A DNA stretch of 64,000 nucleotides from an uncultured Muribaculaceae bacterium (GTDB lineage Bacteria; Bacillota_I; Bacilli_A; RF39; UBA660). The stretch spans positions 5,883 to 69,882 of the forward strand of contig CAZEMQ010000001.1 of assembly GCA_964513435.1 (NCBI GenBank). Reading direction: 5' to 3'. Below are positions 5,672 through 53,673 of this stretch, piece by piece. Both the position numbers and the translations under genes were made by a program. Each line of letters starts with the position of its first letter. The first letter of the stretch is position 1. The notes beneath the pieces are model-generated. The model had not been told where the DNA came from. It made no database searches and was given only the letters and a program-made list of their open reading frames with translations.

Positions 5672-6046
5672 ATGGTAAATAAATATTTTAGTTATAATAG
5701 AGAGTTCAGAATTGATACAGTTAACAGTGTAGTCTTTTGTATACTACACTGTTACGTTCATTTTGATATGGAAAATGAAATAAGAAGGAAATTTCTACAA
5801 TTTGGAGATTTTGTTGTAAAGGCAAAAGCAAAATGTCATGCAAATGACAGCTTTGATCTTGAAAAAGGTAAAAGTATTGCCGAAAGTAGAGCTATTGCTA
5901 AAGCATATTCGTTAGTAATTAAATCTCTTAATTCTATATGTGAATACTATTTAAATAAATCAAATGAATTTGAAAATATAAAAAATAATTTTGAATTAGA
6001 GGAATCTAAAGAAAAATTACGTATATTTGAACTAACAAACTTGTAA
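5672..6046 (+). CDS. hypothetical protein
   Basis: ORF preceded by the repeated GTTTAAAATAGCAAT motif. Confidence 0.35.
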   Translation: MVNKYFSYNREFRIDTVNSVVFCILHCYVHFDMENEIRRKFLQFGDFVVKAKAKCHANDSFDLEKGKSIAESRAIAKAYSLVIKSLNSICEYYLNKSNEFENIKNNFELEESKEKLRIFELTNL

Positions 6047-7359: not shown

Positions 7360-7847
7360 TGAGCAAATCGTTTGTTTTAATAGGCGTAATAGCATGGTTA
7401 TCAATTTCAATATGGTTATCGGTTATTACATATAAAGTATATAATCTAACTCATAAACCAGTAAATATTGAATTTGAACTAAAACTCAATGATAATTCTG
7501 AGTTTATGAAAGATTGGGAAGCTAATGTCACCAATATGCTTGCAGCTTGTACATATTATGACATTAAATGTCCCAAGATAGTTACAGCACAAGCCATATT
7601 GGAATCTGGTAACTTCAAGTCTAATGTATTTAAAAAGTATAATAACCCTTTTGGACTTTATAATAGTAAAACAAAAGATTATTTTAAGTTTGAACATTGG
7701 ACTGACGCAGTAGTAGCTTATAAAAATATGATTCAATATCGTTATAAAGAAGGAGATTATTATATATTTTTAAAAAAAACACGATACGCAGAAGATCCTA
7801 ATTATATAAATAAAGTAAAAGCAATAGAAAACAGTTTAAAAATATGA
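7356..7847 (+). CDS. endolysin, glucosaminidase domain with N-terminal signal-anchor
   Basis: AQAILESGNFKS...NNPFGL matches the mannosyl-glycoprotein endo-beta-N-acetylglucosaminidase family; N-terminal TM helix. Confidence 0.6.
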   Translation: MMSKSFVLIGVIAWLSISIWLSVITYKVYNLTHKPVNIEFELKLNDNSEFMKDWEANVTNMLAACTYYDIKCPKIVTAQAILESGNFKSNVFKKYNNPFGLYNSKTKDYFKFEHWTDAVVAYKNMIQYRYKEGDYYIFLKKTRYAEDPNYINKVKAIENSLKI

Positions 7848-8641
7848 ATGAAAATGAAATAAAAGAACTTTAGTCTATTCTAGTAGAACAAGGATTATTA
7901 AAAGAAAATGATATTGATGGAATAATGGGTCCAAAAACTAATTCAGCATTAAAAGAATATTAGAAATATAGAATACAAAACGATAAAGGATTTATTAATA
8001 ATACATTTCCTTATGGGTATAGTGATGACGATGAAGATACTGTGTTAGGAGTTATAACTAAATTAGGTAAAGCAATATTTGGAAAATCTAATAAAAGAGA
8101 AAAATTAGATGAATTTGTGTTACTTGATTTAAGTACTCCAGAAGGTATTAAAAGAGCCAAAGAATTACGATATATTTTTAATGAAAATTTTAAGGATTAG
8201 AATTTACCATTATCTTATTTACAAAATTCTGCTAGAGCCAGATATGATTTAAATGCTTTATATCAAGGAAAACCATAGATATTTTACACATTTATGATAA
8301 ATCCTGATTATAAATCTGTTTCTGCCGGAGATAGTCCAACATATATTTATAGAAATCCTATACTTCGTAAATAGCTACAAAGTGAGGCCAGAAGTTATGG
8401 TAAAAAACATGGTATTGGCATACACAATGTAGTTGGAGATCCACTTACTACATTTAATAATTATACAATAAATACCATGCACGAAGATGGATCTGGTAGA
8501 GTAATAGATATTTGGGATTTTTCTGGAGATATGTTTAATCCTTTTAAACGTAAAGTTGTAATAGGAGATACTATTCCACCTACTGCACCTTTAAAAAATA
8601 ACATCTCAATAAGAAAATCAAAGAATTAGAAATCAAATTAA
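7844..8641 (+). CDS. TAG-recoded lysis-associated protein with peptidoglycan-binding domain (6 in-frame TAG)
   Basis: ATG overlaps the upstream TGA (ATGA). 266-codon frame interrupted only by TAG. DGIMGPKTNSALKEY[TAG]KY fits PG_binding_1 with Gln at the TAG position. Confidence 0.55.
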
Positions 8642-9663: not shown

Positions 9664-10455
9664 AAATTATCGGGGCTGACGGGTTTTGACAGCGATAATG
9701 ATATAAGTAAGACGTGTAGAGCGCGATCTCTTTAAACGAAGAAAAACAATAAATGCAAACTACAACAAAGTAAGAATGGCTGCCTAAGCAGCTGGCTCAG
9801 TTAATGATATGTTGAGTCGGGTTACAGGAGAGACCTAGAAACAGAAGAGGTGTGCAGAAGAAGGATTATAGAGCCACTGCACTTAACTTGAAAGCCAAAG
9901 GTTAGTAAAGCTGAATCTCCTACTATTGTCTTTAAACAGAAGGGATGTGTGCCTGCGTGGTTGACTCACCACAAACACTCGTTTTCTGCTTTAGCGTTAA
10001 AAAGTAGGTGACGGAAGGTGCTTCAACGGAGCCTTCTAGTTTCTCCAAACTATAAATGGAGTGGTAGATGTTGACTGTTCTAGTCAGTCCTAGTTTGTTA
10101 ATATCATATAACTAAATAAGCTGAACCTCAACAGTTAAAAATAGAGACACACGTTATCTTATTTATTAAATATTGTTGGACGAGGGTTTAATTACGGACC
10201 AGTTAGATGGTGACATCTAATTAAAAATATCGGATGAATTCAGGGAACGCTAAAAATAAAGCTCAGAATCAGCTTTATTCATGCCAATCCTGAGCTAAGC
10301 ACAAGGTACACCTTGTGAAAGTGCAACGACTACCGGAGAAGTTTAGCCTTCTTAATCACCGGCTTGAGCGTCCGACATCTCATTTTGAGATGATGATATA
10401 GTCTAATCTTCTTCGAAAGAAGTATAAGAACATTTTGCGATTCCCTCCAGCTCCA
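9664..10455 (+). ncRNA. ssrA: tmRNA (ssrA), interrupted in the T-loop by a group I intron
   Basis: 5' GGGGCUGACGGGUUUUGACAGCG is a tRNA-like domain start. The resume codon GCA sits ~90 nt in; tag ORF GCA AAC TAC AAC AAA GTA AGA ATG GCT GCC TAA (9755-9787, ANYNKVRMAA). The 3' end GAGGG-TT/CGATT-CCCTC-CAGCTCC-A forms a T-arm and acceptor stem complementary to the 5' end. Confidence 0.7.
10189..10437 (+). other. group I intron (ORF-less, ~249 nt) within the tmRNA T-loop
   Basis: Conserved P AATTCAGGGAAC, Q AATCCTGAGC, R GCAACGACTACC and S GATATAGTCTAA elements in canonical order. The intron ends in G and the upstream exon ends in U. Confidence 0.65.
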
Positions 10456-10473
10456 CGAACTAATTATTTTAAT

Positions 10474-10857
10474 ATGACAACAATAGAAGAATTAGCTAAT
10501 AAAGCATTAGCTAAAAATCCAGAAGATAGAACATACGCAGATAGATATTATATCTGGAAATATGATCGTCTTAAAACAGGAATAAATCCCTACGATGAAG
10601 GTGAAGAAATAGAAATTTATGATGGAACCAAACTTGCTAATAATGAAATAAAGGATGGTTTTGGATGTGATTTTCCAGAGTGGTTTAGAGAATGTGGTAA
10701 ACACTTTGGAGAAAGAGTAAAACTTAAACACAGTAAAGAAGTTCAAACTCTCATAGGAATGTCTTATACGTATGTAGATTGCTATTATATCTTAGAATCT
10801 AACAATAGTAAAATATATACAAGTTGTGTAGAAAGTATAGAATTTTTAGGATATTAA
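10474..10857 (+). CDS. hypothetical protein (start moved to the internal ATG; the track ORF N-terminus overlaps the tmRNA 3' end)
   Basis: Track ORF 10435..10857. Confidence 0.4.
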   Translation: MTTIEELANKALAKNPEDRTYADRYYIWKYDRLKTGINPYDEGEEIEIYDGTKLANNEIKDGFGCDFPEWFRECGKHFGERVKLKHSKEVQTLIGMSYTYVDCYYILESNNSKIYTSCVESIEFLGY

Positions 10858-13081: not shown

Positions 13082-13154
13082 GCCTCTGTGATGTAATGGA
13101 TTAGCATATTTCTCTTCTAAAGAAATCGTTAGAGTTCGAATCTCTACAGAGGTA
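13082..13154 (+). tRNA. tRNA-Arg (anticodon UCU)
   Basis: Cloverleaf: acceptor GCCTCTG/CAGAGGT, anticodon stem TTTCT/AGAAA, loop CTTCTAA, T-arm TAGAG-TTCGAAT-CTCTA. Confidence 0.75.
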
Positions 13155-13190
13155 CTTATATGTTCTAATAAATATTAAAATATAACTTAA

Positions 13191-14353: not shown

Positions 14354-14439
14354 GCTGAGATGGCGGAATTGGTAGACGCATCAGAATTAAAATCTGATGG
14401 GCAGTAATGCCCGTGTGGGTTCGAGTCCCATTCCCAGTA
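14354..14439 (+). tRNA. tRNA-Leu (anticodon UAA), long variable arm
   Basis: GCTGAGA-TG-GCGGAATTGGTAGACGC...; anticodon loop ATTAAAA; T-arm GTGGGTTCGAGTCCCAT. Confidence 0.75.
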
Positions 14440-14456
14440 CTAATACTTAAAGAATT

Positions 14457-20274: not shown

Positions 20275-22619
20275 TTGAAGCGAATGAATAGAGATGAAAG
20301 ACAAACTTTATGTATTAAAAGATGGATAAACACTAAAGGACGCGCAAGCATTGTTGCAGCCACTGGATTTGGGAAGAGCTACGTTGGATTACGAATTATT
20401 CGAGGAATTATATCTAAGAAACGTGATTGCAAGGTTATAATTGTAGTTCCAACTATTACTTTAAAAGAGCAATGGACTAAATCAATTGATAAATGGGGAT
20501 TTACTCTTAATTGTGATATACAGGTTATAAATACTTCTATTAATAAAGAGCAAAATTGTGACTTATTAATAATTGATGAATGTCATACTGCGAATGCTGA
20601 TACTTTTAAACAAGTATTTGAAAAAATAAAGTATAGATGGATTCTTGGTCTTACAGCTACATTTGAGAGAATTGATGGTAAGCACGAAATATGCAGTAAG
20701 TATTGTCCAGTATGTGATACAATTTCAATAAATGAATGTTTAGAGAATGGTTGGGTTTCTCCTTTTAAGGAATATCAAGTTATTATTGATGTGGATGACA
20801 TTAATATTTATAAAGGATACAGTAAAGAATTTACTAAGTCTTTTGAATTTTTTGGGTTATGTGGCCCCTATTATTAGTAATAATAGAAAACCCTTTGAAA
20901 ATCTGAACCCCCATTTACATTTTGTTTTGTGTGTAAAATTTAGTAAATTTGTATTATAAATATTGACTAAATTTTAAAACTATGACTGAAAAAGAATTAG
21001 AAAAATTAAAAACATTAGAAAAATGGGAAACAGATAACCAAGGTTTAATTAAAGGAGATTGGAAATTACTAGAAGTATATAAAGAAATAAAAAAGCCTCA
21101 TCAAAAATATTGTATTATAGAATGTATTCATTGTGGTGAGACTAGATTAGTTTTGTATTACAATTTTCTAAAAAAAGAGTCCCCAAGACCATGTACTAAA
21201 TGTGGTGGAAAATGGATCACTTGGGGCAAATCTATGGTTGGCAAAATTGTAGGACATTATAAAATACTTAAATACATTGAGTGTATTAAAAGAATTTCTA
21301 ATAACAAGATAGATGTTTTCTTTAAAGTATAGTGTATATATTGTGGAGATATTAAAGAGAGAGAATTATATAACAAATCTAATTGGAATAGATATAAATT
21401 ATGTCCAAAATGTCCTAGAAGAAGAAACGATTATTATACTGTTAGATATAAAGAATATCAAAACGGAGCTAAATCTAGAAATTTAGCATGGAATCTTTCT
21501 TTAGAAGATTTTATTAAAATTAGTACTAGTAATTGTTTTTACTGTGGAGCAGAAGCCTAGGTACAAAATAGAGTACAACATGGTTGCTTAGTATCTTTAG
21601 AAGGAAATTTTAATGGAATTGACAGAGTAGATTCTAATTATGGATATACTGTAGATAACTGTGTTCCATGTTGTTCTCATTGTAATATGATGAAAATGCA
21701 CTATACAAAAGAAGAATTTTTATCTTAGATTTATAAAATATATCTTCATTCAATTAAACAAGGTCAAGAGACTATCGAAAACACATCTAATGATGGAAGT
21801 GAGTAGAGTACATTACAAGCTAATGGTAATGGAAGCGGAGGGTGTCCTATAAAGGATAATGAGATAGTCCAATCTATATAGTAATATATAGCAGTTCATA
21901 AGAGAACGTATATAACGTTGCGAGTTATATAGAATATAAATGTCGACTGGAACAAAGTAAATTCTTGTCTTGGTAAAGATGGATATAAATACCGTTATCA
22001 ACTAAGTAAGGAAATGTGTCCTAATGATGAGGAGAAAAGAAAAAACATGATGAAAAACATTACTTATCATGCAACTAACTTTATGCGTGTTCTTCAAGCT
22101 AGAAAATCATTTATCAATAATCATCCAAAGAAATTAGAAATAGCTAGAAAAATTATTGAAGCTAGACCTAATTCTAAAATTATTACTTTTAGTAATAGTA
22201 TAAAAATGGCTGAATCTATTGGAATAGGCCCTGTCTATTCTGGAAAAGATAGTAAGAAAAAAGGCAGAATTACGCTTGAAGAATATATTAATGGTAATTA
22301 TCAAGTTCTAAATACAATAAGAAAAGCAGATGCTGGTCTTGATATTCCGTCTATTTCTGTTGCTATAATTATAGGTACAGATAGTAGTAAAATTAGAGCA
22401 ATACAACGCCTTGGACGTACTTGTCGTTTTGAAGAAGACAAACGTGCTGAGATTTTTAACATCATTATTAATAATAGTGTGGAATTATCTTGGTTTGCTA
22501 ATTCACATCCAGATAATAACTATATTACAATAGACGAAAATGGACTTGATCAAGTCTTGAAAGGAGAAGAGCCTAAACTATATACTAAAAAGGTAAAGGA
22601 TTTTCAATTTAGATATTAA
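20275..22619 (+). CDS. SF2 (DEAD/DEAH-like) DNA helicase, interrupted: exon 1 20275..~20860, exon 2 ~21990..22619
   Basis: N part carries motif I ATGFGKS, motif II IIDECH and motif III LTATFER. C part carries motif V TIRKADAGLDIP and motif VI QRLGRTCR. A ~1.1-kb insertion lies between them. Confidence 0.6.
20861..21990 (+). mobile_element. putative group I intron carrying an HNH homing-endonuclease gene
   Basis: Splits the helicase. An R-like element TATTGACTAAA lies upstream of the HEG and an S-like element AATGAGATAGTCC downstream. Boundaries approximate. Confidence 0.5.
20982..21884 (+). CDS. HNH homing endonuclease, TAG-recoded (5 in-frame TAG)
   Basis: Track ORF 20982..21332 ends in TAG and the frame continues. 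CxxC...CxxC zinc ribbon, then NGIDRVDSNYGYTVDNCVPCCSHCNMMK as in the HNH_3 family. Confidence 0.6.
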
Positions 22620-41885: not shown

Positions 41886-43184
41886 ATGAAATATTGTATG
41901 ATAAAAGTAAGAAAAAGAAATGGAAATCTTGTACCTTTTGAAGTGCATAAAATAGAAAATGCCCTTCAAAAGGCTTTTCTATCTTGTAATTATAAGATAG
42001 ATAAATCTATAATAGAAGAAATTGCAAGCAATGTTAGTATCTGGAATGAGATCAGTGTAGAGGATATTCAAGATCAAGTAGAGGAGCTGTTGATGGATTA
42101 TGATTTCCCATCAGTTGCTAAGTCTTATATTCTTTATAGAGCTAAACATAGTGAAGCTAGATTTATTAAAGAGAGAATAGATTATATGAATAAATATAGT
42201 CTATCTAGTGATAATGCAGCTACTTCTTCAGAGACAGATGCCAACGCTAATGTTACTATGAAGAATGTTGCTAATCTAGAAGGAGAAGTATACAAGACTA
42301 CTAATAGAATTATTCAAAGACAAAGAATAAAGGATAAGTTATCTGAACTCTTTCCAGAGATAGCTAAGCAATATGAAAAAGATCTTGAAAACTATATAAT
42401 TTACGCACATGATGAGTCGCAGACTCCTACCCCGAAGGCATATTGTATGGCTGCGACTTTATATCCTTTAATGCTTGAAGGAACAGGCAGTATTGATGGG
42501 ATAACCCCTTCAGCACCTAATGACATTCAATCTTTTAGTGGACAAGTAACCAATTTAATGTTTCTACTGTCTTCACAAGTTCGTGGAGCAGTGGCAATGG
42601 GTGACTATATAATAGCTTTAAATTATTATGTAATTAAAGAGTTTGGAACTAGTTGGTATGAAAAACTAAATGCTATAGTAACCTCAGAGTATTCTATAAA
42701 TAAACGTACTATTAAAGATAGTATTAGGAAAGGAATGAAACAATTTATTTATGGAATAAATCAACCAGCTGGTAATAGAAGCTACAATAGTCCTTTCAGT
42801 AATTTAAACTTCTTTGATAAATATTATTATGAAGCTCTTTTTGATGAATTTTATTATCCTGACGGAACAAAACCTGAATGGAAAGCAATAGACTGTTTAC
42901 AAAGAATGTTTATGGAATTACTTAGAGAGTTAAGATTAATTAAACCCCTTACATTTCCTGTAACTTCTGTATGTATGTTACATGATAATCATGATTGTTT
43001 AGATCAAGAATGTAAGAAATGGGTTGCTGAAGAATGGGCTAAAGGTAGTAGTTTCTTTCTATATCTAAGCAATAATCCAAATTCAGTATCTAGTTGTTGT
43101 AGAGTACAAAATGAAATAACTGAGAATACATTTAGCTCTACTACAGGAATGACTGGGGTCAAGTCATGGCCCTTATGTGCTTAA
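41886..43184 (+). CDS. nrdD: anaerobic ribonucleotide reductase NrdD, N-terminal piece (ATP-cone + core)
   Basis: VRKRNGNLVPFEVHKIENAL is an ATP-cone; this piece ends ...TGMTGVKSWPLCA-TAA. Confidence 0.6.
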   Translation: MKYCMIKVRKRNGNLVPFEVHKIENALQKAFLSCNYKIDKSIIEEIASNVSIWNEISVEDIQDQVEELLMDYDFPSVAKSYILYRAKHSEARFIKERIDYMNKYSLSSDNAATSSETDANANVTMKNVANLEGEVYKTTNRIIQRQRIKDKLSELFPEIAKQYEKDLENYIIYAHDESQTPTPKAYCMAATLYPLMLEGTGSIDGITPSAPNDIQSFSGQVTNLMFLLSSQVRGAVAMGDYIIALNYYVIKEFGTSWYEKLNAIVTSEYSINKRTIKDSIRKGMKQFIYGINQPAGNRSYNSPFSNLNFFDKYYYEALFDEFYYPDGTKPEWKAIDCLQRMFMELLRELRLIKPLTFPVTSVCMLHDNHDCLDQECKKWVAEEWAKGSSFFLYLSNNPNSVSSCCRVQNEITENTFSSTTGMTGVKSWPLCA

Positions 43185-43787
43185 TTGTCAAATCGGACAA
43201 TGTTACAAAGAAATAATTTTATTTATATTACTTTGGTAGTTATAATATTTTATTACCTTTGTAGCATCGGTGAAGCCTAAGTTAGAAGTAATATGGTAAT
43301 ACCGAGCTAAATTAAAGAAGGTATGGATAAAACGGGTAGAAGGAGTTAAAATGAAAGACATATGGGAATCTTATAAAGAGTTATACTCGTTAAGTAGGTT
43401 TAGAAAAGTAGTATTAGGTTATATTTATACTAATATTCCTATGCCCAAGAGAACTAATAAATGTCAAAAAAGAAAGATACTGACAAAAGATGAAGTATCG
43501 TTTATAAGACAGAAATACAGTGATGGTTATAAAATAATGGAAATTATAAGAAAGTGGTTTCCTAATATTTCCGAATCTACTGTAAGTCAAATAGTTCATA
43601 ATAAAAGCTATACCAAAATTTAATATGCGTGGAGGTCATTCCCTAAGTGATGAGCAGGGAAGTAGGGCTACTATTGATACGTAGCAGAGTTTTAAGAAAT
43701 GAAGCTCTTGAAAACCGAAATAGCACACCTATATGTTATATAGGAAGATATGACCCATATTTTATAGAAATATAAAAAGTACTATGT
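43185..43787 (+). other. intervening sequence 1 in nrdD (intron or HEG-mediated gene split), with a degenerate HEG remnant
   Basis: ATGACTGG is duplicated at both junctions. The S-like element AGATATGACCC is present. Confidence 0.4.
43351..43623 (+). CDS. HEG-remnant DNA-binding protein (NUMOD/HTH-like)
   Basis: ILTKDEVSFIRQKYSDGYKIMEIIRKWFPNISESTVSQIV resembles homing-endonuclease C-terminal DNA-binding modules. Confidence 0.35.
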   Translation: MKDIWESYKELYSLSRFRKVVLGYIYTNIPMPKRTNKCQKRKILTKDEVSFIRQKYSDGYKIMEIIRKWFPNISESTVSQIVHNKSYTKI

Positions 43788-44333
43788 ATGACTGGTAGTT
43801 GTAATGTGATTACTCTTAATATTAATAGGATTATTCAAGACTTTTGCAGAACAAATATGCTGGTAAATCTTGATGGAGAACTTGTTTCTCCTATTAATAA
43901 TGTTTATAAGTGGGAAGATGAACTCAAAAGGTATTTGACTACTATACTGGAGAGAGTCTACAAATACCATATAGCCTTCAAGACTATACTCTATGAACTT
44001 GAAGATAGAGGAATGTATAGCAGTTCTAATGCTGGATATATATTTTTAAAGAAACTATATTGTACAATAGGAGTTATAGGGTATTGTGAAGCTGCAGAAT
44101 TTCTCGGGTATGAAATAAATAATAATCCCGAGTACAAGAGCTTTCTAAAGTTAATATTTGAGACTATACAAGAGCAGAATAAGAAAAATTCTATACACGA
44201 TAAGAAACGTCCTTTTGTATTCAATTTGGAAGCGATCCCTAAACTCTCTGGGGATGTAAAATCTCTTTTGATTGACTCGGAACTCCTTTTAAGAGGACAA
44301 CGAGGCGCAAGCAACTTAATGTGTGCAGCGTGA
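43788..44333 (+). CDS. nrdD: NrdD middle piece
   Basis: MTGSCNVITLNINRI resembles the NrdD (G)xxxxTLNLPRI motif. The frame opens at 43776. Confidence 0.55.
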   Translation: MTGSCNVITLNINRIIQDFCRTNMLVNLDGELVSPINNVYKWEDELKRYLTTILERVYKYHIAFKTILYELEDRGMYSSSNAGYIFLKKLYCTIGVIGYCEAAEFLGYEINNNPEYKSFLKLIFETIQEQNKKNSIHDKKRPFVFNLEAIPKLSGDVKSLLIDSELLLRGQRGASNLMCAA

Positions 44334-50778: not shown

Positions 50779-51133
50779 AATGAACTTAAATGAATTTAGA
50801 ACATTAAGAAAACCTTTTTATATCCATCCAGAAACTTTATTAATTAAGTTTCCCAGACAAAAACATCTGGATAGTTCTTGCGCGGAATGGTTCAGTGACG
50901 AAAATATTCCTTTTTTACATACAATTAGAGGATATTATAATGAAGAGGATAATTATGTAATGTTATATACTAATGATTTTGAAACACCAGATATTAGTAT
51001 AAAATTCTTAACATACATTTTTGAATATTTTCCTAATATAGATTGGATTGGTATAGGGTGTATTAAAGGAAAGGAAGGTGAAATATGGAGTCCAAAAATG
51101 AAAATACAAAGAACAAATGTTAATAAGAAATAA
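50771..51133 (+). CDS. hypothetical protein
   Basis: ORF from the track. Confidence 0.3.
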   Translation: MNKMNLNEFRTLRKPFYIHPETLLIKFPRQKHLDSSCAEWFSDENIPFLHTIRGYYNEEDNYVMLYTNDFETPDISIKFLTYIFEYFPNIDWIGIGCIKGKEGEIWSPKMKIQRTNVNKK

Positions 51134-53673
51134 GATTGTTATTGTATATGATATAGAATTATTTCCCAATGTTTTTTATTGCACATTAAAAGAAACAGAA
51201 TCAAATAAAAATGTTTCATTAGAAATTTCAAATCGAAAAAACGACATACACAAAATAATTAATTTTTTTCATAGAGTTAAAACAAAAGTAAACTCTAGAA
51301 AAGAAATTAAAGATAAATATATATTTTGTGGATATAATAATATACACTACGATAATGTTATAATTAATTATATAATTGCTAATCGAGAACGATTAATAAA
51401 TTGTAATTATGCACAAATATGTGCTGAATTATTTGAATTAAGTAATCAAATTGTTAATTCTGGAGACGGTATTCAATCTTGGTATAAATGGAAACATCTT
51501 ATTTATTTTGACACTTTAGATTTACTCACAATGTTGTTTTCTCAAAAACTTAGAGTAGGTTTAAAATCTATGCAAGTAACAATGCAATATTCAAATGTTC
51601 AAGAATATGAAGGTGATTTCAGTAAACCATTACCAGATTCTGAAATTCCAAAGATGGCTGCATACAATATCAATGACGTTGAGAGTACAACAGAATTATT
51701 AAACAGATGTAAATCGGATATTGATTTAAGACTTAATATTGAAGAAGAATACAATATTGATGTTTTAAATAAAGATGGGGTGAATATTGGAATGCAAATT
51801 ATTGCACAAAAATATTTGGAAAAAACTAAATTAAAATGGAAAGATATTAAAGATTTACGAGATCCGTGTGATGTTATAGATCTTAATCAAATAATTTTAC
51901 CATTTATCAAATTTGATAATCCGATTTTACAAGATGTATTAATAGAACTTAAAAAACAAAAAGTATCTCCAGGTAGAAAAGGTTACGAACGACATTTTCT
52001 ACTAGATAATGTTGAATATACCATAGGAGTGGGTGGTATTCATAGTGTAAATACACCTGATATATTCAAATCTGATGAAAATTGGGTAATTTCAGATATT
52101 GATGTTGCGTTAATACATTGGCGCAAGTAAAACAAACTAAATTGCGGGAACATTCTTAGAGCTTTTGTTACCAACTTATAATAGTAATATATAAGGGCAA
52201 AACTAATCACTTTGATAAGGTAAAAAGACAAAAGATTGGATAATCCGCAGCCAAGTTACCTATTTTAGGTAAAAGGTTCACAGACTATTCCTTTATGGAA
52301 GTAGGGTATAAGTGACGTTTATATCCGAAAAAGTTTGAATTTATTTTGGGAGCTAGCATTACATACTTTTAGATAAAGACGAACTAGCCTTAAAAGGAAT
52401 GTATCAAAATAAATTATGATATAGTCGATAATGAGTCGAAAGATTCATACACACGAGTAAACGTCTTAGTGTGTGAGAAAAGCGATGTATCCCAGTCTTA
52501 TAATAGAACATAAATTTTATCCACCTCAATTAGGAGAAGCGTTTTTACATATTTATTCTAAAATTAGAGAAGAAAGAGTAGAAGCTAAACATAAAGGATT
52601 TAAAACAAAAGATGCTACATTGAAGTTAGCCTTAAACGGGTTGAATTTTCGTTTCAGCTCCTTCATCCAGGGATGGATGATGTAAACAAACCAAAATCGG
52701 TGAAAGTCTGGAATGATAATACCGAGGTAATTGTAGAAACTAAAGAGTCTACAACACCGTACAGCATAGAGACTGAACCTGATTAGTCAGAATAAAATGT
52801 CTCCACGAGTGGTTTGATCTAGAACAGAATAAAATATATGCGGATCTATAACGAATTAATAAGTTATAGAAGTATGGGATAAAAAACCTGTACGATAACA
52901 ACAATGTGAGTGGCATGCTTCAAAATGAGTATAGCTTTTGTTATTCTCCCATTACAGCTATGAAAGTTAGAATAAATGGACAATTAATGTTATTAATGTT
53001 AGCAGAACGGTTAATTAACATTGGTTGTAAGGTCTTAAACGCAAATACGGATGGAATCTTTGTATTAAGATCTCGTTCTGAAGAAAAAATGTTTCAACAG
53101 GTTTGTAGGGAATGGGAAAAATTAACCAAACTTACACTTGAAGAAGATAAATTTGAAGCCTTTTATCAATTTGCTATTAATGATTATCTTGCGATTAAAG
53201 AAGGATATAGTAAAACTAAAAATCCAAAACTATTAAAGAAAAAAGGATTATTTATAGATACTGTATCTTTAGGGAAAGGAATGAATGCAATAATTATTCC
53301 AGAGGCAATTAATAAATATCTTGCAGATAATATTCCGTTAAAAGAAACCATATATAATTGTAAAGATATTAGTAAATTTTTAACTTTTCAGAAAGTGGCA
53401 AAAACCTTTTCTGTGGAATATAATGGTAAATTAATTACTCATATAAATAGATATTATGTATCAACTGATGGGTATAGTCTTTATAAATGTAAAGTCAATA
53501 CAAAAGGAGAAAGAAGTGGATATATAAATATGTTAAAAGGATATGGAGTAACTATAACAAACAATCTTGATGAAATAAAAGAATTTCCGAATAACGTTAA
53601 TTATAATTATTATATCACAGAAGCTAATAAAATAATCACAAAACTTAAACAAAAACAGTTAAGTTTGTTTTAA
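51117..53673 (+). CDS. family-B DNA polymerase, three exons (51117..52110, 52483..~52640, ~52888..53673)
   Basis: Exo motifs YDIELFPN, YNNIHYDNV and YNINDVES. Spliced motif A DIDVA|SMYPSLII; motif B region KLALNG|LYD; DTDG motif C variant in exon 3. Confidence 0.6.
52111..52482 (+). other. group I intron (ORF-less, 372 nt) in the DNA polymerase
   Basis: P AAATTGCGGGAAC, Q AATCCGCAGCC, R GGTTCACAGACTAT and S ATGATATAGTCG are all near-consensus. Exon 1 ends in U, the intron ends in G, and splicing restores motif A. Confidence 0.7.
52641..52890 (+). other. second intervening sequence in the DNA polymerase (~250 nt, type unresolved)
   Basis: Exon 2 terminates at TAA 52683 after motif B begins. 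The exon 3 frame opens at ~52870 and completes motif B. Core intron elements are not clear. Confidence 0.35.

Follow-up and report, generated by a model that had tools for sequence, protein, structure and literature searches.

A helicase gene of superfamily 2 (SF2) in the DNA analysed here very probably holds a mobile group I intron, and within the intron an open reading frame (ORF) for a PacI-like HNH homing endonuclease that is recoded, in that TAG is read as glutamine. The DNA is a stretch of 64,000 nucleotides (nt) of contig CAZEMQ010000001.1 (assembly GCA_964513435.1, forward-strand positions 5,883 to 69,882), hereafter the window, in whose own numbering all positions are given. Its source is a large AT-rich gut phage which uses TAG as Gln in part of its genes. 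The window is approximately 28% GC, nearly all of its genes lie on the plus strand, and they form a replication and nucleotide-metabolism module with primase, DnaB-like helicase, ligase, PolB-like polymerase, NrdD, thymidylate synthase and exonucleases. The interrupted SF2 helicase would serve replication or repair. In the following paragraphs L-numbers (e.g. L004, L133, L140) denote related loci and P-numbers (P0001, P0241) homologous proteins.

A preliminary description of this DNA had reported a split SF2 helicase gene, and this is borne out. ORF 20275-20877 matches Pfam ResIII (3.5e-23) and DEAD, ORF 22014-22619 matches Helicase_C (6.4e-12), and the two map to consecutive parts (positions 283-459 and 470-606) of a single helicase profile, PHROG 16; their exons join without a gap. 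The limits of both halves have moved: the gene probably starts at ATG 20284, rather than TTG 20275, because its homologs begin MNRDERQ, and the second exon starts 71 nt upstream of ATG 22014, the codon at which the downstream ORF had been taken to begin. When 20275-20857 and 21943-22619 are joined, an open frame of 419 codons results, and the spliced helicase would comprise 416-419 amino acids (aa), with Phe195 restored at the junction.

A protein search with the spliced product returned 1,760 homologs at E <= 1e-10. The best 120 of these are nearly all uninterrupted and 416-430 aa in length, and the closest among the homologs listed (P0001) is 87% identical to the spliced helicase. The alignment runs over the junction without a gap, the window reading SFEFFG-F-DWNKVNSCLGKDGYKYRYQLSKE and P0001 reading SFEFFD-F-SWDRVNSCLGKDGFKYRYQLSKE; homology to exon 1 ends exactly at 20857, the first base of the Phe codon after FEFFG, and the Phe that spans the junction is conserved in at least 90% of the homologs. 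Among the gapless in-frame junctions only 20857/21943 gives U as the last base of the exon together with G as the last base of the intron. From the protein alignment and the group I boundary rules we place the splice sites, which could not be fixed earlier by eye, between U20857 and U20858 and between G21942 and U21943, the insertion being 20858-21942 and the predicted spliced junction GAATTTTTTGGGT/TCGACTGGAAC. Relatives in which helicase motif VI defines the junctions have their terminal G in the same alignment column as G21942. Compared with the DNA of the intron-less homolog L004, the ratio of nonsynonymous to synonymous substitution (dN/dS) is approximately 0.11-0.12 in each exon.

The group I character of the insert, likewise proposed at the outset, is supported by a covariance model of the intron family and by covariation among orthologs. 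The covariance scan that had been suggested yields no match with the general Rfam model RF00028, but a strong one with R1, a model of the 3′ half of the family built from 64 non-redundant 3′ halves, with the window and its nearest relative left out. R1 matches window positions 21742-21952 over the full length of the model with 146.3 bits (E 6e-37), and the match ends ...GAAUAUAAAUG/UCGAC, at the start of exon 2. RNAalifold, run on the 64-sequence alignment, predicts P7, P7.1, P7.2, P8, P9, P9.1 and P9.2; 24 of the 38 pairs show compensatory changes.

For the full structure, eight orthologous introns were aligned after removal of two ORF-containing loops. Over 77 pairs in these eight introns 90.9% of the cells can pair, versus 35-45% when the partners are slid by 1-3 columns; 40 of the 77 pairs have changed on both sides, versus 16.0 +/- 2.6 in shuffles, and this count was reached in none of 500 shuffles. 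P3 has all six pairs in each of the eight orthologs, from six different sequence pairs, and four of the six are compensatory. Compensatory changes extend to P1 (GGGU/GCCC in the window, GGAU/GUCC in L140), P5 (CCC/GGG versus UGC/GCA in L137), P6 (AC/GU versus AU/AU in L134) and P6a, for which there are five variants. P7.1 is CAUC/GAUG in the window and CAGC/GCUG, CACU/AGUG or UAUC/GAUA in the orthologs. In the classification of Michel and Westhof, P7.1 and P7.2 between P7 and the 3′ strand of P3 define subgroup IA, and because both are present we describe the helicase intron as IA-like. The positions of its parts are collected in Table 1.

Table 1. Features of the split helicase gene, its intron and the intron ORF, in window coordinates
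Feature	Position	Strand	Sequence or basis
Helicase exon 1 (motifs I, II, III)	20284..20857	+	Pfam ResIII/DEAD, gapless homolog alignment
P1	20854-20857 with 20864-20867	+	Exon GGGU with guide GCCC; U20857 pairs G20864 at 5′ splice site
Group I intron, 1,085 nt, subgroup IA-like (P7.1 + P7.2)	20858..21942	+	Junction rules, model R1, covariation
P2 hairpin	20868..20886	+	CUAUUAUU / AAUAAUAG; ortholog pairing, aligned by model R2
P3, 5′ strand	20891-20896	+	CCCUUU
P4, 5′ strand	20901-20905	+	AUCUG
P5, 5′ strand	20910-20916	+	CCCAUUU
Homing-endonuclease ORF, 300 codons	20982..21884	+	ATG 20982, stop TAA 21882-21884
P5, 3′ strand	21021-21027	+	AAAUGGG
P4, 3′ strand	21031-21035	+	CAGAU
P6, 5′ strand	21037-21038	+	AC
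P6a, 5′ strand	21043-21050	+	GUUUAAUU
P6a, 3′ strand	21752-21759	+	AAUUAAAC
P6, 3′ strand	21763-21764	+	GU
R element	21763-21776	+	GUCAAGAGACUAUC
J6/7 (between P6 3′ strand and P7 5′ strand)		+	
P7, 5′ strand	21770-21776	+	GACUAUC
P7.1	21784-21795	+	
Conserved core motif	21801-21811	+	GAGUAGAGUAC
P7.2	21811-21831	+	
P3, 3′ strand	21837-21842	+	GGAGGG
P8	21844-21857	+	
S element	21861-21869	+	GAGAUAGUC; spans P7 3′ strand
P7, 3′ strand	21863-21869	+	GAUAGUC
P9	21874-21891	+	
P9.1	21894-21907	+	
P9.2	21909-21931	+	
Tail		+	GAAUAUAAAUG, ending in terminal G 21942
Helicase exon 2 (motifs IV-VI)	21943..22619	+	Pfam Helicase_C; stop TAA 22617-22619

The strands of the P4-P6 region were located through L142 and L143, which keep the canonical P4′-P6 motif of the family, AAUCAGCA-ACCAAGG, some 47 nt inside the endonuclease ORF. 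By this motif the true 3′ strands of P5 and P4 and the 5′ strands of P6 and P6a fall at 21021-21050 of the window, which reads AAAUGGG-AAA-CAGAU-A-AC-CAA-G-GUUUAAUU and lies inside codons 14-23 of the ORF. Three other candidates for the region were rejected on this evidence: a P4 drawn by eye (CUGAA/UUUAG), a P6 drawn by eye (UUUUGUUU/AAACAAGG), and the P4-P6 version of a constrained minimum-energy fold. The preliminary description had R-like and S-like elements on either side of the endonuclease gene; this arrangement is not found, as the true R and S elements both follow the nuclease domain on its 3′ side, within the read-through frame, and the R-like TTGACTAAA at 20964 was rejected as an R element, being part of a hairpin stem in the P5 loop (L5).

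The ORF in the intron is interrupted by TAG alone, at 21330, 21558, 21726, 21804 and 21879. Read through, it matches PHROG 1035 (3e-18) and PHROG 3118 (1.4e-15), both endonuclease VII / HNH profiles, across the TAG positions, and these matches together with the predicted fold support an HNH-family endonuclease as the product of the gap. Protein P0241, found in NCBI-derived data, has 300 aa and is 100% identical to the read-through ORF; thus public annotation already uses TAG as Gln. An AlphaFold2 model from 45 homologs has a mean predicted local distance difference test score (pLDDT) of 85.8 and is confident for residues 1-262, with pLDDT below 50 at residue 263 and beyond; the codon of this residue coincides exactly with the beginning of P7. 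A Foldseek comparison of this model with the PDB gave PacI (3ldy) as the only significant match (E 6e-4, probability 1.00, target-normalised TM score 0.50, 20% identity), covering the catalytic domain of the ORF. A sequence search of the PDB revealed nothing significant, PacI being a weak match. The invariant columns are G212, I213, D214, R215, Y222, N226, C230, C231, C234, N235 and K238, forming the motif GIDR...Y...N.(V)..CC..CN.MK, and there are four CxxC pairs; the catalytic and zinc-binding columns are intact. The modelled product is a PacI-like beta-beta-alpha-metal HNH nuclease with N-terminal zinc ribbons.

Alignments of several genes indicate that TAG is Gln in the endonuclease and in other genes of this phage lineage; that the endonuclease is TAG-recoded had been proposed in the preliminary description. 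We counted 23 in-frame TAGs in 74 ORFs. Fifteen of the 23 are found in three genes, namely 274-924 (4), 7844-8641 (6) and the endonuclease ORF (5), and most window genes have none. The first of these genes encodes a HEXXH-motif protein; the second, just downstream of a glucosaminidase-like gene, encodes a peptidoglycan-binding-like protein. The endonuclease ORF is enriched in TAG, with 5 TAG versus 9 CAA/CAG codons, compared to 18 versus 343 elsewhere (Fisher p 8e-4). In homologs of gene 274-924, two of its TAG positions are near-invariantly Gln and the rest are Gln or Glu. In L132, a 59% identical homolog, CAA of the window is matched by TAG, and TAG of the window by a Gln codon. The terminator of ORFs with 100 codons or more is TAA in 52 cases, TGA in 16 and TAG in 5; three of the five TAG terminators are artefacts of recoding or of the intron, and the other two are followed by TAA or TGA within 2-10 codons.

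Within the endonuclease, the counterpart of TAG117 is Gln in five standard-code orthologs, and that of TAG249 is Gln in four of eight. The recoded orthologs L139 and L140 have five TAGs in the called frame and neither TAA nor TGA before the terminal TAA; their TAG116 and TAG274 align with TAG117 and TAG275 of the window, and the other three are at different codons. The conserved core motif GAGUAGAGUAC contains TAG275 (21804-21806) as its UAG, which in five standard-code orthologs, whose proteins are 274-278 aa long, serves as the natural stop of the ORF; in the recoded phages the frame is 21-25 codons longer, continuing through P7.2, the 3′ strand of P3, P8, the 3′ strand of P7 and half of P9 to a TAA.

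It is very unlikely, in our estimation, that the intron is real and the endonuclease a decaying pseudogene, in which the TAGs are true stops and only an N-terminal fragment of 116 aa is made. Such decay would agree with the lack of a suppressor tRNA in the window, with the variable alignment position of TAG193, and with the common loss of the endonuclease in this intron family (cr118_1, for example, retains only a remnant). It is contradicted by the uniformity of the interruptions, all five of which are TAG, with no TAA, TGA or frameshift across 300 codons of 28%-GC DNA, by the intact catalytic and zinc-binding columns, and by AlphaFold2 confidence that is high across the TAG sites. In addition, TAG aligns with Gln in the orthologs and in other genes of the lineage, and L139/L140, a second recoded lineage, repeats the pattern partly at different codons.

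The preliminary description had offered a free-standing homing-endonuclease gene as an alternative to an intron; the helicase would then exist as two independently translated polypeptides that reassemble, and no splicing would occur. We judge this very unlikely. Gene callers do give separate ResIII and Helicase_C ORFs, both in the window and in orthologous loci, ATG 22014 could serve as the start of the C-terminal half, and Rfam reports no intron at the helicase gap. However, the 24 codons at 21943-22013, immediately upstream of that ATG, contain no in-frame ATG, GTG or TTG, and still they are 83% identical to the uninterrupted homolog; against L004 they have a dN of 0.10 and a dS of 1.2, which is purifying selection. 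Lacking a start, these codons are translatable only if joined to exon 1, and this is our main argument against two separately translated halves. Exon 1 homology that stops exactly at 20857, the canonical U and G at the boundaries, and an insert with a complete, covarying group I fold likewise speak for an intron. It is hardly conceivable that the insert is removed only after translation, as an intein or another element acting at the protein level, even though inteins are common in related intron-rich crAss-like phages (Yutin et al., PMC7886860), because the sequence itself refutes it: the helicase frame meets TAG and then TAA at 20875-20880, just past the junction, the endonuclease ORF is in a different register from the helicase, and neither intein splicing motifs nor Pfam intein domains were detected.

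Several observations do weigh against an intron with a functional recoded endonuclease. Exact-match scans of IMG/VR and of JGI metagenome contigs did not reveal the exon-junction sequence, nor was the subfamily motif matched exactly in either of them, and the 5′ junction has no exact match in IMG/VR. Rfam RF00028 (gathering score 50 bits) finds nothing in 20700-22150 with the E limit raised to 10, and R2, the model of the 5′ half of the family, which recognises two other introns of the window, matches only P1-P2-P3 here, at 16 bits with filters off. Both failures are attributed to the ORF, which starts in L5 and fills L6a with its body and in this way divides the core into three parts; even so, they count as direct tests with a negative outcome. 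With 5 bp, of which 2 are G-C, P4 is short and rich in AU, and no convincing P10 pairing could be drawn. As for the endonuclease, no Pfam or NCBIfam HNH model matches the ORF even at E up to 10, and its earlier label "HNH_3-type" is therefore withdrawn. No suppressor tRNA(CUA) is present in the 64-kb window, which is about half of a genome of roughly at least 130 kb, or in 20 related loci scanned. The sole tRNAs of the window are tRNA-Arg(TCT) at 13082-13155 and tRNA-Leu(TAA) at 14354-14440.

The intron belongs to a widespread family. Window positions 21757-21940 are 70-80% identical to DNA that directly follows endonuclease genes in 202 phage records, the hosts of which differ widely, and every related locus that was inspected shows a likewise split gene. 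The split gene encodes the portal protein in Vibrio phage F88, the large terminase subunit in Psychrobacter phage D'Alembert, the lysin (amidase) in Staphylococcus phage IME1367_01, DNA polymerase in the crAss-like cr53_1 and cr118_1, and the head protein mp4 in Lactococcus phage Tuc2009, where it is annotated as "linked ... after excision of group I intron". Two relatives pass the gathering score of Rfam RF00028, one in a Staphylococcus phage (97.9 bits) and one in an SPbeta-like phage (66.8 bits), and the closest relatives have in common a 21-mer over P9.1 and the first bases of P9.2, which occurs in at least 120 IMG/VR loci.

Homologs of the endonuclease with 45-67% identity lie on contigs with the layout helicase N-half, endonuclease, helicase C-half. 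Intron and endonuclease occupy the same site, one base into the codon following FEFFG, in L133, L136, L137, L139/L140, L142 and L143; L141 has the same endonuclease and Helicase_C layout, its 5′ exon being off the contig. In L134 (a Logan contig, SRR33881033) the orthologous intron and endonuclease are found 17 nt downstream, after FDFDKV instead of FEFFG plus one base, which suggests a shift of the insertion site inside a common target region. The site is empty in P0001/L004 (the 87% identical helicase) and in most of the 1,760 homologs; the intron-less site of L004 reads AAATCATTTGAATTTTTCGATTTTTCATGGGATAGAG, with exon halves AAATCATTTGAATTTTTCGAT/TTTTCATGGGATAGAG. Members of this intron family are also found at motif VI (approximately aa 352; nine loci) of the same helicase family in other phages, and further insertions are located near motif I (approximately aa 33) in L001 (MT835492), which has a LAGLIDADG ORF, L024 and L102. 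Judged from these sequences, such site-specific presence and absence would be the usual signature of homing into conserved motifs.

The IMG/VR loci in which the helicase family is invaded at other sites are L091, L024, L102, L125, L128, L045, L060, L120 and L111. The GIY-YIG ORF in the L091 intron is interrupted by three in-frame TAGs and by no other stop codon. In L136 (4440-6828) two GIY-YIG ORFs lie 3′ of the split helicase, the C-terminal part of which is apparently interrupted again.

In the mechanism that we propose, the pre-mRNA would fold as a ribozyme of the subgroup IA type, consisting of P1-P2, the P3/P7 pseudoknot, P4-P5-P6-P6a, P7.1, P7.2, P8 and P9-P9.1-P9.2. The ribozyme would excise itself and join ...GGG U to UC GAC..., restoring Phe195 and the 416-419 aa helicase. 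By analogy with phage intron endonucleases, the enzyme would cut or nick intron-less helicase alleles of co-infecting relatives, and repair would then copy the intron into the cut allele. Because of the five in-frame TAGs the full-length enzyme is possible only when TAG is decoded as Gln, presumably via a phage suppressor tRNA late in infection, and the endonuclease would be produced later than the early helicase.

The ORF and the ribozyme overlap extensively. From its start in the P5 loop the ORF reads through the 3′ strands of P5 and P4 and the 5′ strands of P6 and P6a, its body occupies the P6a loop, and its last 38 codons (263-300, window 21768-21884) are the P7-to-P9 core, the corresponding protein tail being predicted as disordered. 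Approximately a quarter of the paired core doubles as coding sequence: the P5′, P4′, P6 and P6a strands as codons 14-23, and the region from the 3′ strand of P6a to P9 as codons 257-300. Consequently, ribosomes on the ORF would have to unfold the ribozyme. We offer tentatively, as an idea with the odds against it, that the code switch is a timer which separates splicing from homing on the same RNA. Early in infection TAG would end translation at codon 117, P7-P9 would be free of ribosomes, and the helicase mRNA would be spliced; late in infection a suppressor tRNA would permit read-through and the nuclease would be made for homing. As a corollary, recoded phages would lose the natural UAG stop in GAGUAGAGUAC and gain the disordered tail of 21-25 aa from P7.2 to P9.

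Other parts of the window contain further introns or traces of them. A second group I intron, without an ORF, is located at 10172-10506 (Rfam RF00028 95.4 bits at 10180-10425; R2 47.9 and R1 39.4 bits), and is followed by ORF 10435-10857. The DNA polymerase gene is in fragments (51117-52130, 52473-52685 and 52906-53673), with an ORF-less group I intron at approximately 52076-52526 (R2 33 bits, R1 44 bits) and a possible second one at approximately 52632-52900 (R2 17.5 bits, E 0.92). A weak R1 match (17 bits, E 0.0065) at 43666-43798 is found beside the NrdD-like ORF 41886-43184, which matches its PHROG profile only in part; nrdD may contain a further intron here.

For annotation, the helicase should be joined as 20284..20857 plus 21943..22619, and the ORF with five TAGs should be translated with TAG as Gln. 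Standard tools miss the locus, since Rfam overlooks the intron and translation table 11 breaks the ORF into pieces. The locus is a clean case of two phage features interacting, namely mobile introns and stop-codon reassignment, and it illustrates the extent to which an endonuclease ORF can expand into a ribozyme core with selection acting on both. In a 64-kb replication module otherwise written in the standard code, only the endonuclease gene and two others are rich in TAG, which fits the published idea that recoding delays "late" functions. Current understanding is not changed by this locus, which is useful for annotation and would not surprise a specialist.

One of the closest published parallels is found in the Agate phages of Borges et al. 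(bioRxiv 10.1101/2021.08.26.457843), in which an early gene contains a group I intron whose endonuclease prefers recoded TGA, and in which the in-frame stops were proposed, for that phage clade, to delay the endonuclease until late infection. Both there and here a self-splicing intron (here a predicted one) resides in an early or replication gene of a stop-recoded gut phage, the endonuclease is enriched in the recoded stop and the host gene uses the standard code, and late production of the enzyme is proposed. The two differ in the reassignment (TAG to Gln here, TGA to Trp there) and in the phage clade; in the Agate account as consulted, the host gene is not identified as a helicase and the structure of the intron is not given. 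Many group I introns and read-through of TAG or TGA are also characteristic of the 145-192 kb "Zeta" crAss-like phages (Yutin et al., PMC7886860), which the window resembles in having several introns and TAG read-through, related contigs being 130-179 kb. With cr50_1, cr53_1 and cr118_1 (Suoliviridae) the intron has in common the P9.1/P9.2 21-mer and a 3′ core that is 70-76% identical, and the endonucleases of these phages are homologous to that of the window (approximately 36-42% identical); unlike the helicase intron, the introns of these phages are in DNA polymerase or ATPase genes, and their ORF is in standard code and, in cr53_1, starts after P6. In jumbo gut phages with presumed Bacteroides or Phocaeicola hosts, 37 of 76 predicted group I introns were confirmed as spliced in metatranscriptomes (PMC12880540).

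Phage group I introns with P7.1 and P7.2 are further represented by the introns of Tuc2009 mp4 (with an HNH ORF) and of Staphylococcus phage lysin genes, by SPbeta-type introns and by T4 td-type IA introns. Among these the 3′ core is 74-76% identical to that of the window, and the endonuclease ORF is looped out of the core. Unlike the helicase intron, the Tuc2009, Staphylococcus, SPbeta and td introns use the standard code, have other host genes and hosts, and carry the ORF elsewhere, which for the Staphylococcus intron is upstream of P3. PacI (PDB 3ldy) is, like the modelled window protein, an HNH / beta-beta-alpha-metal nuclease with cysteine zinc sites; unlike it, PacI is a 142-aa restriction enzyme and is not intron-encoded, and the window protein is longer at its N terminus by about 130 residues, which include two CxxC...CxxC ribbons. 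Both recoded endonucleases of introns in early phage genes and recoded crAss-like phages dense in introns have thus been published before, and the present case adds an instance with TAG instead of TGA and a helicase as the host gene. The extent to which the ORF overlaps the ribozyme core, and the loss of the natural UAG stop of the family in recoded hosts, may be less well described.

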